Positions 20,045 to 43,377 of a stretch of 64,000 bases of DNA are shown here, in pieces. The position numbers and the translations under genes were made by a program. Under the pieces are notes generated by a model. It searched no databases, was not told where the DNA came from, and saw only the letters and a list, made by a program, of their open reading frames with translations. Origin of the DNA: an uncultured Candidatus Saccharibacteria bacterium (GTDB taxonomy: Bacteria; Patescibacteriota; Saccharimonadia; CAILAD01; BJGX01). Where the stretch lies: positions 61,324 to 125,323 of the forward strand of contig CAZSVP010000001.1 in NCBI GenBank assembly GCA_964610335.1, written 5' to 3'. Each line of letters starts with the position of its first letter. Position 1 is the stretch's first letter.

Positions 20045-23000
20045 TTATGGCTGAGTCGTGATAGTTTGGCTACTTGTAGTTGGCTCAGGCACTTGTGGTG
20101 ACTGTTGTTTTTTGAGTAGCTCTATTTCGGCTTCAAGCTTTTTAAGTCGATCTTCGTGATCTTCTACAATTCCACTAAGCTTCTTGAGCTCGGTAGAAAT
20201 AGACTCAAGCTGTAATCCTTGGTCTGCTAACAGCTTGTTAACATCGTCAATCTTACCGCCTTGTTCTTGCACGGCCTTGGTAATAAGAGCTGTAACCATA
20301 TCATAGTTAAAGCCCTCAATCTTGCCGTCGCGATAGAATACTAGCCGGTCATCAACCTTTGCTGCTTCTTCCGCCACAAAACCAATTGCTGCCCTATCAT
20401 CTGTATTATAGTTAAAGCTAACCGCTCGGAGCTTCATAAGATCATCCAACCCAAGGCTAAGATCCTCTATGTTATGTTTGTAGCGCTCCGATGAAACATT
20501 ACAAACACCGGCTTGCTTCACTAGTAACCCGCTGGCATCAACACATACGTACTGGCTCGATGCACCACCATTGGTAACATTATTAATATCGACCGTACCA
20601 CCAGCTATGGCCAACGTGTTGTTATTGGTGACAGTATACGGACCTCCTGTACCAAGTCCGATACCAACTGAGCCATCACCATCAACTGTCATGTTTTGGC
20701 CAAAAGCCGTTGATACTGATCCATTTGCAGCATTGGTATATCCAAATGATGTTGAGTCTAAACCCGTTGCAGATGTCGACTGGCCAAAAGCGGTGCCATA
20801 GTTGTCTGCCACTGTCTGGTACCCAAAGGCTGTGGCATAGAGTCCAGCATCTGTTTGAAATCCAAAAGCGGTGCCATAATCTCCACTAGCTGTTGTTTCA
20901 GCCCCAAATGCGGTAGACCCACCACCAAGCGCATTTGTCGTGAGCCCAAAAGCAGTAGAATTGTCGCCCGAGGCAATCGAACCTAACCCAAAAGCTGTAG
21001 AATACTCACCGCTGGCAGTTGTACTTGCTCCAAAGGCTGTAGCGCCTGTGTCTAATGCATTAGTATCAAACCCAAATGCGGTTGAGACTGCACCTGATGC
21101 CACTGAGGAGAACCCAAATGCGGTTGAGTACCCACCACTAGCCAAAGTACCAGATCCAAAGGCAGTGTCAGCCAAGCTTGAGGCAGTTGTAGCATTCCCA
21201 AAAGCTGTAGAAAGCGTACCACTTGCAACCGTGCCAGCACCAAAGGCAGTTGATTGACCACCACTAGCAGTACTGGTGTTACCAAAGGCTGTTGAGTAAA
21301 GACCGCTGGCAGTAGTAATGGTTCCAAAAGCTGTAGCACCCTGGCCAGTGATAGTATTGGTAAACCCAAACACAGTACCATAGACTGCGCCTGCACCAAT
21401 TGTATGCTGATGTCCAAATGCAACTGCACCGGTAGCACCAAGTGGAATCACGTTATTGTCACCAAAGGCAGTAGAACCGATAGCGTTGGCTTGATTGCCT
21501 TGACCAAATGCGATACTTCCTTCTTCACTTGCAGTGTTTAGCGTCCCAAAAGCAACAGCATAAAGGCCAGATGCGGTATTATTGGTGCCAAAGGCAGTCG
21601 AGTAGTTACCGCTTGCAACTGTAGTAGCACCAAATGCCGTAGACCCAAAACCACTTGCCAATGTGTCATCACCAAAAGCGGTTGAGCGGATTCCGCTTGC
21701 CTCAGTATTAATACCAAATGCTGTAGAATCAAAATTAGAAGCAAGCGTATCGTGGCCGAAGGCTGTGGTGTTTGAGCTTGTGGCATCACTACCATTGCCA
21801 AATGCAGTTGAGCCAGTTCCCGATGCAATAGTATTTATACCAAACGCAACAGCACCGTCATTAGTGGCCTGTGTGGTAGCGCCAAATGCCACTGACCCAA
21901 ATCCTGATGCCAGCGTTCCAACCCCAAAAGCGGTTGATTGATTGCCACTAGCGACCGTGCCCAACCCAAAGGCTGTAGCTGTATTACCCGAAGCATCAGT
22001 GCAAGCACCAAAAGCGGTTGCGCTAAATCCTGATGCAGTTGGATTGGGCAATAATGCACTTGCACAGTCTGTAGCTGGCACTAGATAGTAACTACTACCA
22101 AATGATGTAGCAAAGTCACCACTAGCAGTTGTAGTGGCACCAAATGCAGTGCTCTCAAAGCCGCTGGCGATTGTCCCTTGACCAAAGGCAGTTGAGCCAA
22201 AGCCGCTGGCGAGAGATGCAAAACCGAATGCAGTTGATGCTTGACCATCTGCGTGCGCGATAATTCCGAAAGCAGTTGAGTTGCTCCCACTAGCTATGGA
22301 ACCGCTACCAAAAGCAGTACTTTCAAATCCACTCGCTATGGTATTGTCTCCAAAAGCGATTGAATAATCGCCTATTGCCTGTGTGGTTAAACCAAATGCT
22401 GTTGAAAATTCTCCACTAGCTAATGACCCGGATCCAAACGCAGTCGAGCCTGTTCCACTTGCTTCTGTATTGTCGCCAAGAGTTGTAGATAGTAACCCAC
22501 TTGCAATTGTACTAGATCCAAGAGCGGTTGAGTTTGAACCACTAGCAATATTATTACTACCAAGAGCCATAGCATTGTCGCTCGTTGCCTGATTATGAAA
22601 GCCAAGTGCCACAGTGTAGTGATCACTGGCTACATTGGTGTCGCCCATTGCTAATGAGCTAAAACCGCTTGAAGTATTGAAGATCCCAAATGCCATTGCG
22701 TAGGAATTGTTAACAATATTGCCTGCGCCAATCGCAGTGGCAACCACACCAGACACGTTATTGTTGGAGCCGAAAGCAACTGATCCTAAGTTTGAAGTAA
22801 TATTGTCTATTCCGCCTGCAATGCTAGATGTACCGCTGGCAATATTGTCTTGCCCCACTGCTATTGAGTAGTATCCAACATTGGCGTCATCCCACTGAGT
22901 CCCTGTGACAGTACCGGCTCTCAATGCTGCCTTACCTGGGTTCCAAAACATTAGAGACTTACCTGCCCCTGGAGCAGGTAGAATAGGTGCAGCCGTACCG

Positions 23001-23566
23001 AGAGTTCCGGTAGCAATTAGACTACCACCGGCCGTTGCGTCAAATGTCAGATCAAAACCATTTTGCGGCAAGGTAGTATTGTGAAGCAGCGGATTAGTAC
23101 CAAACTCTAGTGTTGCACCACTTAGATATGTACCGTTTTGAGCTGTGGTAACTCCTGGCCCGCCTGCTGGACCGGTTGCACCAGTCGCACCTTGCAAACC
23201 AGTTGCGCCCACAGGGCCGGCCGGACCGGGTATTGGCGAGGTTGTGATTTGTTGAAGAGTTTGCTGAGTATTAGTCACAAACTGTTGCAGTTGAGAAGAT
23301 AGGTTGTTGAAAGTAACTGTTTCACCAGCAATTTTTAATCCAGTCACACTGCCGTCAGCTAAGTCCGTCTTACCAACTAAGCTACTATCAGGCGAGGGAC
23401 ACCAGCGGTCATTGAGCCCAAGCATACGGATATACCATACATCAGTACAGAGGCCACGAAGTATAATCACTATCACTAAAAACAATGCAGCTAAGCCGAC
23501 TAGTAGCCAGATGAGCCAGTGACTATTTGATTGATTCTTATCTTCTGTTGACTGACTTGTCGCCAT
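20045..23566 (-). CDS. Giant membrane-anchored surface fibre protein of 1,173 aa. Order of parts: N-terminal TM anchor, collagen-like G-X-Y triplets, about 50 degenerate 13-14-aa (A/S)SGxxSTAFG repeats (YadA-head/Hep_Hag-like), then a C-terminal peptidase S74 intramolecular chaperone (tail-spike autoprocessing) domain.
   Basis: TM LIWLLVGLAALFLVIVIIL. PGPAGPVGATGLQGATGATGPAGGPG. Repeats such as NTIASGTGSTAFG and DTLASGFGSTAFG. C-terminus SSERYKHNIEDLSLGLDDLMKLRAVSFNYNTDDRAAIGFVAEEAAKV...YDMVTALITKAVQEQ matches the S74 CIMCD, followed by a coiled coil. Confidence 0.8.
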   Translation of the reverse strand: MATSQSTEDKNQSNSHWLIWLLVGLAALFLVIVIILRGLCTDVWYIRMLGLNDRWCPSPDSSLVGKTDLADGSVTGLKIAGETVTFNNLSSQLQQFVTNTQQTLQQITTSPIPGPAGPVGATGLQGATGATGPAGGPGVTTAQNGTYLSGATLEFGTNPLLHNTTLPQNGFDLTFDATAGGSLIATGTLGTAAPILPAPGAGKSLMFWNPGKAALRAGTVTGTQWDDANVGYYSIAVGQDNIASGTSSIAGGIDNITSNLGSVAFGSNNNVSGVVATAIGAGNIVNNSYAMAFGIFNTSSGFSSLAMGDTNVASDHYTVALGFHNQATSDNAMALGSNNIASGSNSTALGSSTIASGLLSTTLGDNTEASGTGSTAFGSGSLASGEFSTAFGLTTQAIGDYSIAFGDNTIASGFESTAFGSGSIASGSNSTAFGIIAHADGQASTAFGFASLASGFGSTAFGQGTIASGFESTAFGATTTASGDFATSFGSSYYLVPATDCASALLPNPTASGFSATAFGACTDASGNTATAFGLGTVASGNQSTAFGVGTLASGFGSVAFGATTQATNDGAVAFGINTIASGTGSTAFGNGSDATSSNTTAFGHDTLASNFDSTAFGINTEASGIRSTAFGDDTLASGFGSTAFGATTVASGNYSTAFGTNNTASGLYAVAFGTLNTASEEGSIAFGQGNQANAIGSTAFGDNNVIPLGATGAVAFGHQHTIGAGAVYGTVFGFTNTITGQGATAFGTITTASGLYSTAFGNTSTASGGQSTAFGAGTVASGTLSTAFGNATTASSLADTAFGSGTLASGGYSTAFGFSSVASGAVSTAFGFDTNALDTGATAFGASTTASGEYSTAFGLGSIASGDNSTAFGLTTNALGGGSTAFGAETTASGDYGTAFGFQTDAGLYATAFGYQTVADNYGTAFGQSTSATGLDSTSFGYTNAANGSVSTAFGQNMTVDGDGSVGIGLGTGGPYTVTNNNTLAIAGGTVDINNVTNGGASSQYVCVDASGLLVKQAGVCNVSSERYKHNIEDLSLGLDDLMKLRAVSFNYNTDDRAAIGFVAEEAAKVDDRLVFYRDGKIEGFNYDMVTALITKAVQEQGGKIDDVNKLLADQGLQLESISTELKKLSGIVEDHEDRLKKLEAEIELLKKQQSPQVPEPTTSSQTITTQP

Positions 23567-39431: not shown

Positions 39432-39755
39432 CTATGTGGTTTCTAACTCTATTTGTACGCCACCAACGCGCTTAGCAACCACGTTGTAAATAGCTGCAGT
39501 TATAAGCCCTGCCAAGAATCCAATTCCTGCATACATAAGCACAATCAACGCGCCAATAAGAATACCGCCAAACAACCCACCTATCAAGCCCAAAGCAAGA
39601 TTGTTGGAAGCCGCACCGGCTGCAGCACCAATTATCACAATAATAAATAGATAGATTACAGCAATAATCAAAGCAATTACACCATATATTACTGCCAATA
39701 CTTTACCCAAGCTCATTGGGTCGACGCGTTTTACTGTCGATTTACTTAATGCCAT
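39432..39755 (-). CDS. Hypothetical small membrane protein of 107 aa
   Basis: Three TM helices rich in Gly/Ala/Ile. Confidence 0.45.
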   Translation of the reverse strand: MALSKSTVKRVDPMSLGKVLAVIYGVIALIIAVIYLFIIVIIGAAAGAASNNLALGLIGGLFGGILIGALIVLMYAGIGFLAGLITAAIYNVVAKRVGGVQIELETT

Positions 39756-39815: not shown

Positions 39816-42800
39816 CTAGTAGGCTTGCCAGTTGAACTCGACGTCGCTAGATTGAGCTTTGTTGAGCTCAATAGTAAAGCTGTCTTTGTCGATGGCTGTG
39901 GTACGATACGGCCCATCTACAAAATCTTGGGGGCTAACTACTACGTTTGGAACTGAAACGAAGCTCGACGCAAAAGGAACCTTGAGTTTGGTATCACCAG
40001 CGACTACCTTGGCTTTGCCTTTGTTGTCAGAGCTAAATTCTACTCGACCATTCACTACCAGGTTTCCATTTATTGTAATTGCTTTGGCCTTGGCAAGTTC
40101 TGTCAATACGTCAACCGAAACAGTAGTTTGGGAATCAAGTTGAGACTTCAGATCGTTGATCTGCGACTGTTGTTGTTTGATAGCTTGTACAAGATATGGC
40201 GTAAGCCCGGCGTAACTAACTGACTTCATACCATTTTTGTCTGTAAGTACTAAGTCTGGCATGATCGCTTCCAGCTCCTGAGCCAAGAAACCAACATGAA
40301 CAGGGTCGTCGTCTTTCTCGGCTGTGAGGTTGTAGCTATACACTTTGATAGCACCAATCTTCTCAAGCGAGTCGGTAATCTCACTGATGTTTTTCTTAAC
40401 TCTAATGTCTGAGGTACAAGTAACTGCTCCAACTACGTTTGGCGTAACATCACAAGTACCACCGGCGTTTTCAAAGCGTGCCACCGTAGTGCCACTAACA
40501 AGGCTTCCGTCGCCAACATGTAGGTTAAATCCTGGTGCAGAATTGTGTACACCTACATATCCAGCTGTCTGATTAAGGAGTATATTCCCATCTGTAGTAC
40601 CCGTACCAGATGCAATCACCACATCACCGCCTGCAGCACCATTACCATTGGCTCCTAGGATAGACAATGCGGCGCCAGCCGTAGCAGCAGATGTTGAATC
40701 ATTGATCTTTATAGTATGAGCTAACTCTTGATCAAAAAATACATCACCACCTAGTTGCGTGTTGGCAGCAAAGTTTACATCATCTAGCGCACTAACGCTT
40801 CCTCGAAATGACGAGTTACCATAAACTTGAAGTGCACCAATTATATTGGTGTTACCGGCAGTAAGCGTGGTAGCCCCACCACCATCTGTTAATGAGGTTG
40901 AAGATTCTGAATTGAAAGTAAGATCGAGTGCACCAGATACGCCTACTCTACGTGTGCTGCTCATCTGTACAGTGTCTACTGTGTTTGAGCCATCGGTAGA
41001 ACCGCCAATCAAGAACACGTAGCCGTTCGTGACAACAGCTGCTTGCTGTTCAATACCAGTTGCCATATCACTCTCATGCTCCTTCCAGGTTCCTAAATCA
41101 CCATCAGGCTGCAATGGGGCAGTCGAGGTAATAACTTGTGGCACTCCGACAAGATCACCACCAACCCTATAGAGATTGCCGCTATTTACAAACGCCGTAT
41201 GATTGAATGTGCCATAAACAGGACCATTGCTAGCTGTACTCCAGGCGTTGTTTGAACCATCGGGATTCAATGAAGCATATTTTACGGAATCACCTCCTAA
41301 ATCTAAGTAGTACAAGAACCCGTTGGCCACTACCGCATCTGCTGCCTTCCAAGAGCTTGGCAGCGGCGTGGCGCTAGTTGTCCAACTAGCGATAGTTCCA
41401 TCTGAATTTGGCTTGGCATAGTAGACCGAACTGAAGTTACTGAAGTTGTCAGTACCAGCTACTACGTACATATAACCATTGTTTTGAGCCCCACCATAGA
41501 AGGCCCTTAAACCAGGTAAGCTAGTAGTGCTGCGCCAAGTACCAACACTGCCGTCGGCATTGATTCGAGCATAGTATACTGTCGAGACTGCAAATGGGCC
41601 GACTCCGTCTTCACCACCTACTACGTATATGTAACCGTTTTGGATGAATGTCTTATGCCCAGAACGAGGTACTGGTAATGGAGTGGTAGAAGACCAACTC
41701 AATGTTCCTTCAGCTCCAACCTTGGAGTAATAGACACTAGTGGTCGCCGAGCTTACGCCATCATCACCACCCGTCAGATATATATACCCATTAGCATAAC
41801 CATACCCCATATTCTTGAGTGGTGTTGGAAGAGTATTGGCCGGACTACTCACCCAGCGTCCGGTTGGATTATACGGCGAGGCAATATTTGCTGTAAGGGC
41901 AGCACTATTCTCACTATTTAAGAATGTAGAACTACTGAGTGCATTGGCCGCTGCACCAGTAGTTAAAATATTGAATGCTGTGGTTGGGTATGGTCCAGAC
42001 AGGGTATTGGTACCGGCCTGATCAATTATGGCAATTCCGGCCACGTTGGCAACAATTCCCCCACCATTGTTTACTGGACTTAAAACTTGAACACCTGATA
42101 GATTGGTAATTGTGCCAGTACCAGTATTACCGTATCCTACAAACAGCCCACCACCATTGGTGATGGTACCATCGGAAGTATTGAACATATATGAGCCAAG
42201 TCCGTATCCAGTAGTTATGGTGCCCGACCCCACATTGACCAATGTACCATTGACTCCCGCGCCAGCCGTGACTGTACCAGAGCCTTGATTGTAAAACGCG
42301 CCGAACTCGCCTGCACCGAGAGTAATATTCCCTGTTCCACTATGAACCGCAAGTGAAGAAGCCCCACTTAAACCAGTGTAATCAAAACCATTTTCAACCT
42401 CAACTTGGGCAGATGAGTAACTACCTGTGAAACCAGATGCTCCAGCATCAGTATCGCCTTTGATATAAATTTCACTACCTGTACCAGAGTAAACAGTCGG
42501 TGTTACTGCAAATGGTAAGCCGCTAAATTCTTCTTGAACAGCCAAAACCCTAGTAGTAGGAATGGGTGTCATGGGTATTACAGGTATATTCATCGGCCCT
42601 AAAGCAATTGGCCCTATGATGCTGCCTGTACCAAAAGTAGAATCTGCACCGATTGCAGCATGATTGTGGATCCAGCCATTGCCGTACACATCAAGTGACT
42701 GTTGTGGTGATGCTGTATTTATACCCAGACTACCCGCGGCATTGAATGTTGACATCACACTGCCTGAGCTGTTCTCCAAGGCAAACATATCTGCCAACTG

Positions 42801-43292
42801 GCCACTGGCACCACGAATTATACCTCCTGCAAAGTAGGGATTAGCTGACTGAATAGCAAAGTTCTTACTTGGCTCCACTGCATAGGAATTACATATTACA
42901 CTCTGAACACAGCCGACAGTCGGATTGTTTGTCACAAACAGTGATGTATTGTTTGAACTGTTCGCGTTTGTGACTGACAGGTTTTGTTGGTTTTGGTTAA
43001 TAGCTGACTGTAAGTACGCAGCAATACCCGGTGTAAGTTGGTCAAACCCAATCGATCCATCGGCTATTTCAGCGCTCGCGGCCGGTAATCGTCCACCACT
43101 GCCTTGTTGACTATTGCGAACATTACCCAAATCCCACCATAACAGAAGTATTAGTATTAACAACAGTATCACAGCCACAATTATCACATCGGACAATATA
43201 CGTAACCATTGTACGCGCTTGGCTGTTACTTCACTTTCATGTACTAGATCGATTTGGTCGACTTGACCAGTTTGATCGTAAGGCTCTTCCAC
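39816..43292 (-). CDS. Giant membrane-anchored surface protein of 1,158 aa. Order of parts: N-terminal TM, a beta-rich Gly/Thr/Ser region, Kelch-type beta-propeller repeats, a peptidase S74 intramolecular chaperone domain, then a roughly 100-aa C-terminal tail.
   Basis: TM VIIVAVILLLILILLLWW. Kelch-like repeats (NGYIYVVGGEDG..., NGYMYVVAGTDN..., NGFLYYLDLGGD..., NGYVFLIGGSTDG). S74 motif TSDIRVKKNISEITDSLEKIGAIKVYSYNL...VHVGFLAQELEAIMPDLV...SYAGLTPYLVQAIKQQQSQINDLKSQL. Confidence 0.8.
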   Translation of the reverse strand: MEEPYDQTGQVDQIDLVHESEVTAKRVQWLRILSDVIIVAVILLLILILLLWWDLGNVRNSQQGSGGRLPAASAEIADGSIGFDQLTPGIAAYLQSAINQNQQNLSVTNANSSNNTSLFVTNNPTVGCVQSVICNSYAVEPSKNFAIQSANPYFAGGIIRGASGQLADMFALENSSGSVMSTFNAAGSLGINTASPQQSLDVYGNGWIHNHAAIGADSTFGTGSIIGPIALGPMNIPVIPMTPIPTTRVLAVQEEFSGLPFAVTPTVYSGTGSEIYIKGDTDAGASGFTGSYSSAQVEVENGFDYTGLSGASSLAVHSGTGNITLGAGEFGAFYNQGSGTVTAGAGVNGTLVNVGSGTITTGYGLGSYMFNTSDGTITNGGGLFVGYGNTGTGTITNLSGVQVLSPVNNGGGIVANVAGIAIIDQAGTNTLSGPYPTTAFNILTTGAAANALSSSTFLNSENSAALTANIASPYNPTGRWVSSPANTLPTPLKNMGYGYANGYIYLTGGDDGVSSATTSVYYSKVGAEGTLSWSSTTPLPVPRSGHKTFIQNGYIYVVGGEDGVGPFAVSTVYYARINADGSVGTWRSTTSLPGLRAFYGGAQNNGYMYVVAGTDNFSNFSSVYYAKPNSDGTIASWTTSATPLPSSWKAADAVVANGFLYYLDLGGDSVKYASLNPDGSNNAWSTASNGPVYGTFNHTAFVNSGNLYRVGGDLVGVPQVITSTAPLQPDGDLGTWKEHESDMATGIEQQAAVVTNGYVFLIGGSTDGSNTVDTVQMSSTRRVGVSGALDLTFNSESSTSLTDGGGATTLTAGNTNIIGALQVYGNSSFRGSVSALDDVNFAANTQLGGDVFFDQELAHTIKINDSTSAATAGAALSILGANGNGAAGGDVVIASGTGTTDGNILLNQTAGYVGVHNSAPGFNLHVGDGSLVSGTTVARFENAGGTCDVTPNVVGAVTCTSDIRVKKNISEITDSLEKIGAIKVYSYNLTAEKDDDPVHVGFLAQELEAIMPDLVLTDKNGMKSVSYAGLTPYLVQAIKQQQSQINDLKSQLDSQTTVSVDVLTELAKAKAITINGNLVVNGRVEFSSDNKGKAKVVAGDTKLKVPFASSFVSVPNVVVSPQDFVDGPYRTTAIDKDSFTIELNKAQSSDVEFNWQAY

Positions 43293-43349
43293 AAGCTCTC
43301 CAACTGTTACGCTTATGATTATACGTAAGCATTACCTATTTGGTCAACT

Positions 43350-43377
43350 AAAAAAGGCCCAAGAGTGGGCCTTTTTT
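43350..43377. terminator. Bidirectional rho-independent terminator (aaaaaaggccc-aagagt-gggcctttttt)
   Basis: Perfect GC hairpin with an A-run and a T-run. Downstream of the 43396-43839 gene. Confidence 0.55.

Follow-up and report, generated by a model that had tools for sequence, protein, structure and literature searches.

How ultrasmall episymbiotic bacteria recognise their hosts is largely unexplained; type IV pili, an established host-binding system of Saccharibacteria, are so far alone implicated (PMC12206443). The closest described system to the protein reported here is the mosaic adhesive trimeric (MAT) fibre family of Bdellovibrio bacteriovorus (Caulton et al. 2024, Nat Microbiol, PMC10769870), whose members are surface-located, trimeric and mosaic. 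MAT fibres carry a cleavable signal peptide and then, in all 21, a conserved beta-rich N-domain of ~130 aa that binds the predator surface. Their ends are an S74 chaperone (13 of the 21) or a beta-sandwich, TNF-like or C-type-lectin tip, as alternatives. Self-cleavage at S782, within an SDxxxK motif, has been proven experimentally for one member, Bd3182. The authors point to interplay with type IV pili as a possibility, and their list of MAT-bearing organisms does not include Patescibacteria (PMC10769870).

S74 domains are also found in phage fibres such as endosialidase NF of phage K1F, T5 pb1 and S16 gp37 (6f45). In endosialidase NF, an attachment domain is followed by a six-bladed propeller, a C-terminal stalk and the S74 chaperone. 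The tail fibres of eCIS combine S74 with H-lectin/SLL-like domains, beta-propeller lectins and collagen shafts (PMC12923769). MYRF, a eukaryotic membrane-bound S74 protein, carries the domain internally, with functional sequence on either side of the cut, and its trimerisation-dependent self-cleavage parts a membrane-bound from a released portion (PMC3742440, PMC8326128).

A chromosomal fibre gene in Candidatus Saccharibacteria

The gene described here occupies positions 39816-43292 on the minus strand of the window, the whole stretch of 64,000 nucleotides analysed. The ORF listing confirmed it: the gene starts with GTG, its stop codon lies at 39816-39818 and its product has 1158 aa. From N- to C-terminus, the protein comprises a signal-anchor helix, a stalk, a beta region, a Kelch propeller, a tail-fibre-like segment, an S74 chaperone and a C-terminal domain. 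A putative promoter, TTGACC-18-TATAAT (43318-43347, minus strand), agrees with the consensus at 11 of 12 positions; the DUF5684 gene has its terminator hairpin just upstream of this site (about 43351-43371), and a GGAGAG ribosome-binding site lies between the site and the GTG codon.

The kelch/S74 gene is a cellular chromosomal gene of Candidatus Saccharibacteria and not a phage gene. Its neighbours are the genes for AttH, DUF1801, DUF5684, malic enzyme, DnaK, LepA, MurJ and FtsH, and its GC content equals that of the flanks. The synteny is kept in four relatives, P0001, P0003 and P0004 among them, at identities spanning 56-96% (56-59% for P0003 and P0004). Directly downstream lies a gene for a small multi-pass membrane protein of 107 aa (39432-39755, minus strand) that matches no Pfam family. 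It neighbours the fibre gene in every syntenic locus, any tie to the fibre being putative. Like the MAT fibres, the window protein is chromosomally encoded, about 1000 aa long, predicted to be exported and present in a bacterium living on bacteria, and both families consist of phage tail-fibre-like modules, are mosaic with swaps and occur in several copies per genome.

Membrane anchor, stalk and beta region

A reading of the same DNA made from the sequence alone (hereafter the sequence-only reading) had proposed an N-terminal TM anchor, and the present data agree with it. Residues 30-53 (LRILSDVIIVAVILLLILILLLWW; 43134-43205, minus strand) are predicted to form a signal-anchor helix: the best 19-aa Kyte-Doolittle window, beginning at residue 32, has a mean of 3.35, the AF2 model places a helix at 16-63, and the basic residues K25, R26 and R31 precede the hydrophobic stretch. 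Residues 1-29 would be cytoplasmic, with these three basic residues on the inner side. Inspection of the sequence by eye revealed no AxA-type signal-peptidase site. The N-terminus is conserved in P0001, P0003 and P0004, and the N-terminal region has no relatives detectable outside the family. The protein is set apart from the MAT fibres, as these have been described, by an uncleaved-looking TM signal-anchor and an apparently different N-terminal region.

A membrane-proximal stalk follows (residues 54-112; 42957-43133, minus strand), with an IADGSIGFDQL motif and a helix predicted with low model confidence at 88-104. It leads into a Gly/Thr/Ser-rich beta region (residues 113-473; 41874-42956, minus strand) that includes the fibre motif GSLGINTASPQQSLDV. 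This region has no sequence match in Pfam or PDB. AF2 models it as short strands at regular spacing (pLDDT 40-55), suggesting that it is probably a beta-solenoid shaft; the full-chain AF2 model is that of a monomer, with a mean pLDDT of 45. Of all the modules of the protein, the beta region varies most: it is found in two alternative versions in the homologs and is 32-34% identical, with indels, to its counterparts in P0003 and P0004.

A six-bladed Kelch propeller

Pfam placed both domains named by the sequence-only reading, S74 and Kelch, above their cut-offs (60.6 vs 22 and 35.4 vs 20.1 bits, respectively). The Kelch_1 match (E=7.4e-9) falls in a beta-propeller that occupies residues 474-790 (40923-41873, minus strand), and Kelch propellers in the PDB match residues ~470-664 with E-values down to 1.3e-22. 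Four to five blades had been counted before; there are in fact six (495-545, 546-598, 599-650, 651-696, 697-749 and 750-790), all recovered as Kelch blades at E<=1.4e-6 by leave-one-out blade HMMs and in agreement with the strand pattern of the AF2 model, where pLDDT is about 60-89. Ring closure is probably provided by the strand at 474-494. The matches are to binding-type Kelch proteins, among them KLHL, KEAP1 and designed ones. The propeller matches neither sialidase (BNR) nor any glycosidase family, and NCBIfam finds no enzyme family in the protein. No described MAT fibre bears a propeller, of the Kelch type or any other, and the words "Kelch" and "propeller" have no occurrences in the supplements of the MAT paper (PMC10769870). 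To call the propeller a head, as had been done, is an assumption, because it lies mid-chain and not at a terminus. It is followed by a segment resembling the tip of tail fibres and by a lectin-fold knob, and there are therefore three candidate binding modules in the chain.

Tail-fibre-like segment and S74 chaperone

PHROG tail-fibre families align with the protein from ~775-830 to ~1053, with E-values down to 3.3e-24. This alignment defines a tail-fibre-like distal segment (residues 791-957, including GYVGVHNSAPGFNLHV; 40422-40922, minus strand), which has no sequence match in the PDB. Behind it, residues 958-1056 (40125-40421, minus strand) comprise the S74 intramolecular chaperone and its C-terminal helix. 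Peptidase_S74 (PF13884) covers residues 961-1016 over the full model (1-58; E=1.9e-16). Solved phage fibre chaperones (6f45, 8jov) align with the S74 segment, whereas the match to MYRF (7dc3) is marginal (E=0.87); tblastn matches the segment to 1156 phage records. Both the S74 domain and the segment preceding it are homologous in sequence to those of the phage S74 fibres, with which the window protein also shares the Ser-Lys dyad. It differs from them in that a membrane anchor replaces the virion-attachment domain, the propeller is of the Kelch type and not a sialidase, S74 is not at the C-terminus, and the gene lies amid housekeeping genes.

The predicted autocleavage motif, S961-D-I-R-V-K966 (40395-40412, minus strand), conforms to the SDxxxK of Bd3182 (as defined in PMC10769870) and aligns with SDRRIKK of 6f45. 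All six family members share S961, D962 and K966, and the protein would be expected to cleave itself at this site. Among S74 modules preceding a knob domain, S[DESNT]xxxK is kept in 65 of 80; the other 15 are mostly fragments truncated N-terminally, and in three of them the Ser/Lys spacing is kept with Leu replacing the acidic residue. The viral S74 controls keep the motif in 14 cases out of 14. At 15 viral loci the ORF runs on for no more than about 10 aa beyond the S74 domain, always without a knob, whereas in the window protein a further 102-aa domain stands behind it. This position does not exclude membership of the S74 family, because an internal S74 domain is known from MYRF. There too, self-cleavage separates a membrane-bound from a released portion, as predicted for the window protein. 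The topology of MYRF is nevertheless reversed: its TM segment is C-terminal to S74 and an N-terminal transcription-factor trimer is released (PMC3742440, PMC8326128), whereas in the window protein the N-terminal part would stay anchored and the chaperone-knob part would be released.

A lectin-fold knob behind the S74 domain

A tail of roughly 100 aa after S74 had been pointed out by the sequence-only reading. The tail is real; however, it is not a loose extension but a discrete conserved domain with an H-type-lectin fold (residues 1057-1158, 102 aa; 39819-40124, minus strand), a six-strand beta-sandwich of the kind common to Helix pomatia agglutinin and discoidin. Its family amounts to 522 cluster representatives, and its usual place is directly behind an S74 module. 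The knob follows S74 directly in 81 of the 82 representative proteins having both domains, suggesting that the two are a functional unit. No description of an S74-then-knob unit was found in the literature searched. An N-terminal hydrophobic segment (signal peptide or anchor) is present in 32 of the 95 knob-family proteins of at least 350 aa.

The Pfam H_lectin model (PF09458) gives the window protein 16.3 bits, short of its cut-off of 24 (E=0.011). Two other members of the family come just short of the cut-off (23.0 and 23.8 bits), and E<=0.01 is reached by 10 of 42 members (best E=3e-5). By eye, a near-conserved Arg of the family (YRVT) aligns with the Arg through which Helix pomatia agglutinin binds its ligand, and no match was found in the family for the other sugar-site residues of that lectin. 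The knob has no PDB sequence match, no PHROG family and no tblastn match in 50,697 phage genomes; its fold is nonetheless common to many C-terminal domains of phage tail fibres and tailspikes, and its closest structural neighbours include those of the depolymerase tailspikes LKA1 gp49, K1 lyase and K64-1 S2-4. The H-type lectins (Helix pomatia agglutinin, discoidin I/II, SLL-2) and the lectin-fold knobs in which R-type pyocin fibres and tailspikes end are all homotrimers. From the H-type lectins the window knob is distinguished by its separate sequence family and its place after an autocleaving chaperone, sugar binding being putative. MAT fibres likewise bear lectin-type tips (PMC10769870), but as an alternative to S74, whereas S74 and the knob stand in series in the window protein. 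For S74 chaperones in general, this combination raises the mechanistic question of what purpose a conserved binding-fold domain serves beyond the autocleavage site.

Selection and mosaicism

The full architecture is rare, with five full-length homologs among 5.8 billion clusters. The family is mosaic and under purifying selection. Against P0001, dN/dS is 0.044 for the whole gene and 0.02-0.05 in each domain with non-zero dN, and the N-terminal anchor has no non-synonymous changes; dS along the gene is heterogeneous (0.12-0.78). The N-terminus of P0004 is 96% identical and its S74 domain 47%; in P0005 the corresponding figures are 25% and 89%. Apart from the N-terminal anchor, the knob is the best-conserved module in P0004 (85%). 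The proposal, made at the outset, of a modular family of exported, phage-derived fibres is supported by these discordant domain identities, the spread of dS, the loci with several S74 genes (see below) and the MAT precedent.

Proposed assembly and function of the fibre

On balance, the protein is probably an adhesive fibre, trimeric and exported by Sec, that owes its folding to a self-cleaving chaperone and most likely binds the host bacterium. The fibre would be a homotrimer on the Saccharibacterium cell surface, assembled from the module set of phage receptor-binding proteins. The signal-anchor helix would direct the chain to the Sec translocon and stay in the cytoplasmic membrane, N-terminus inside, while the remaining 1100 aa or so are exported unfolded. 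The S74 chaperone would emerge last and trimerise, probably helped by the knob, whose fold would be obligately trimeric, and would template folding of the tail-fibre-like segment from C-terminus to N-terminus. The Ser961/Lys966 dyad would then cut at SDxxxK, leaving a mature fibre and, as a fragment, chaperone plus knob (about 198 aa). The mature fibre would comprise anchor, stalk, beta shaft, three six-bladed Kelch propellers and a newly exposed tip, segment 791-957, now C-terminal. Projecting from the small epibiont cell, it would most likely bind glycans or proteins of the host surface, the propellers and the exposed tip being the likely binding surfaces. The host-attachment role is suggested by the lifestyle of the lineage, by one type IV pilus linkage and by analogy.

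Several points count against this reading: the full architecture is rare, the propeller lies mid-chain, the full-chain AF2 model is that of a monomer (mean pLDDT 45), linkage to type IV pilus genes was seen in one relative and not in the window, and it is hard to rationalise that a strongly conserved lectin-fold knob should be discarded along with the cut S74 domain. The C-terminal part could instead be retained, either uncut or as a fragment staying in place non-covalently, in which case the knob would be the distal sugar-binding tip and the Kelch propeller an accessory. We regard this as unlikely, though it has points in its favour: the knob has the fold of many phage fibre and tailspike ends, is under purifying selection (dN/dS 0.05), ranks next to the anchor in conservation in P0004, and is coupled to S74 as if in a functional unit. 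Nevertheless, the Ser-Lys dyad is kept as strictly as in phage S74 domains known to cleave, and all characterised S74 domains (endosialidase, T5 pb1, Bd3182) release the C-terminal part; of the H-type lectin sugar site, one Arg alone could be aligned by eye, and the H_lectin score is 16.3 against a cut-off of 24. That the propeller is an enzyme degrading host or environmental surface polysaccharide, in the manner of endosialidase or capsule depolymerases, appears quite improbable. The Kelch match is to binding proteins and not to sialidase (BNR) or glycosidase families, NCBIfam yields no enzyme family, and no catalytic residues could be proposed, even though the domains follow one another as in endosialidase NF, and C-terminal domains of depolymerase tailspikes (LKA1 gp49, K1 lyase, K64-1 S2-4) are among the structural neighbours of the knob.

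The fibre might also have a target other than a bacterial host, acting in self-aggregation or binding a biofilm matrix or abiotic or eukaryotic surfaces, or the protein might be a structural part of the envelope. The sequence does not point to a ligand, Kelch and lectin-fold modules are versatile in what they bind, the source Saccharibacteria are environmental MAGs without a known host, and the sources of the 32 knob-family proteins with an N-terminal hydrophobic segment (among 95 of at least 350 aa) need not be epibionts. We consider this improbable all the same, given that the cultivated Patescibacteria are all obligate episymbionts (PMC12206443), that a Kelch-S74-knob gene is linked to a type IV pilus operon in one relative, and that the sole experimentally studied bacterial S74 fibres serve prey recognition (PMC10769870). 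Least probable of all is a prophage or phage-remnant tail-fibre gene encoding a virion component. Although its C-terminal 380 aa match PHROG tail-fibre families and 1156 phage genomes, the protein has a membrane anchor in place of a virion-attachment domain, no phage genes are found among the scanned ORFs of the window, housekeeping synteny persists in relatives at 56-96% identity, GC content does not depart from that of the flanks, and in the 15 viral loci nothing but S74 closes the ORF, with no knob behind it.

Sibling S74 genes and candidate host-specificity determinants

The window contains a second S74 fibre gene (20045-23566, minus strand; 1173 aa), whose product comprises a TM anchor, a collagen-like stretch, about 25 YadA_head repeats (Pfam, E=4e-88), S74 and a long coiled coil, without the lectin knob. 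The two proteins had been described as paralogous and as sharing the same anchor and chaperone. The latter is true in kind only: in a BLASTP comparison the S74 modules alone align (26% identity, E=3e-11), and the N-termini have no significant similarity (E=1.2). With S74 as the sole shared part, "paralogous" is an overstatement. The motif T-S-D-I-R-V-K-K-N-I...VGFLAQELE, attributed to both, actually reads SSERYKHNI...IGFVAEEAA in the second protein. Its YadA_head repeats liken this protein to trimeric autotransporter adhesins, but Pfam finds a YadA-type C-terminal beta-barrel anchor in neither window protein, and their N-terminal anchoring inverts the polarity of those adhesins. No eCIS or baseplate-attachment genes occur in the vicinity.

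The favoured host-binding fibre would be anchored in the membrane and, much like the prey-recognition fibres of Bdellovibrio, made of tail-fibre parts, and is therefore a testable candidate for epibiont host recognition. The kelch/S74 gene, its YadA-head sibling and the S74 genes of relatives offer concrete, swappable candidates for specificity determinants; if the MAT parallel is true, the host range of uncultured Patescibacteria could be predictable from their sets of fibre modules. Two linked readings are advanced tentatively, and we hold them to be rather doubtful. Epibiotic Patescibacteria may have acquired the module set of phage receptor-binding proteins separately from Bdellovibrio, anchoring it directly in the cytoplasmic membrane through a signal-anchor helix for use as swappable host-recognition fibres. 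Fibres of this kind would then be a general solution in bacteria living on bacteria. Cleavage of the S74-knob part may, in addition, yield a functional lectin, either freed as a soluble trimer or left docked as a tip, with a function of its own.

Other Saccharibacteria loci have two to three S74 genes each, with differing passengers. Linkage to type IV pilus genes is absent from the 64-kb window and was seen in one relative (L058), where a Kelch-S74-knob gene has another TM-anchored S74 gene on one side and a type IV pilus operon on the other, and a third S74 gene is found beyond that operon.

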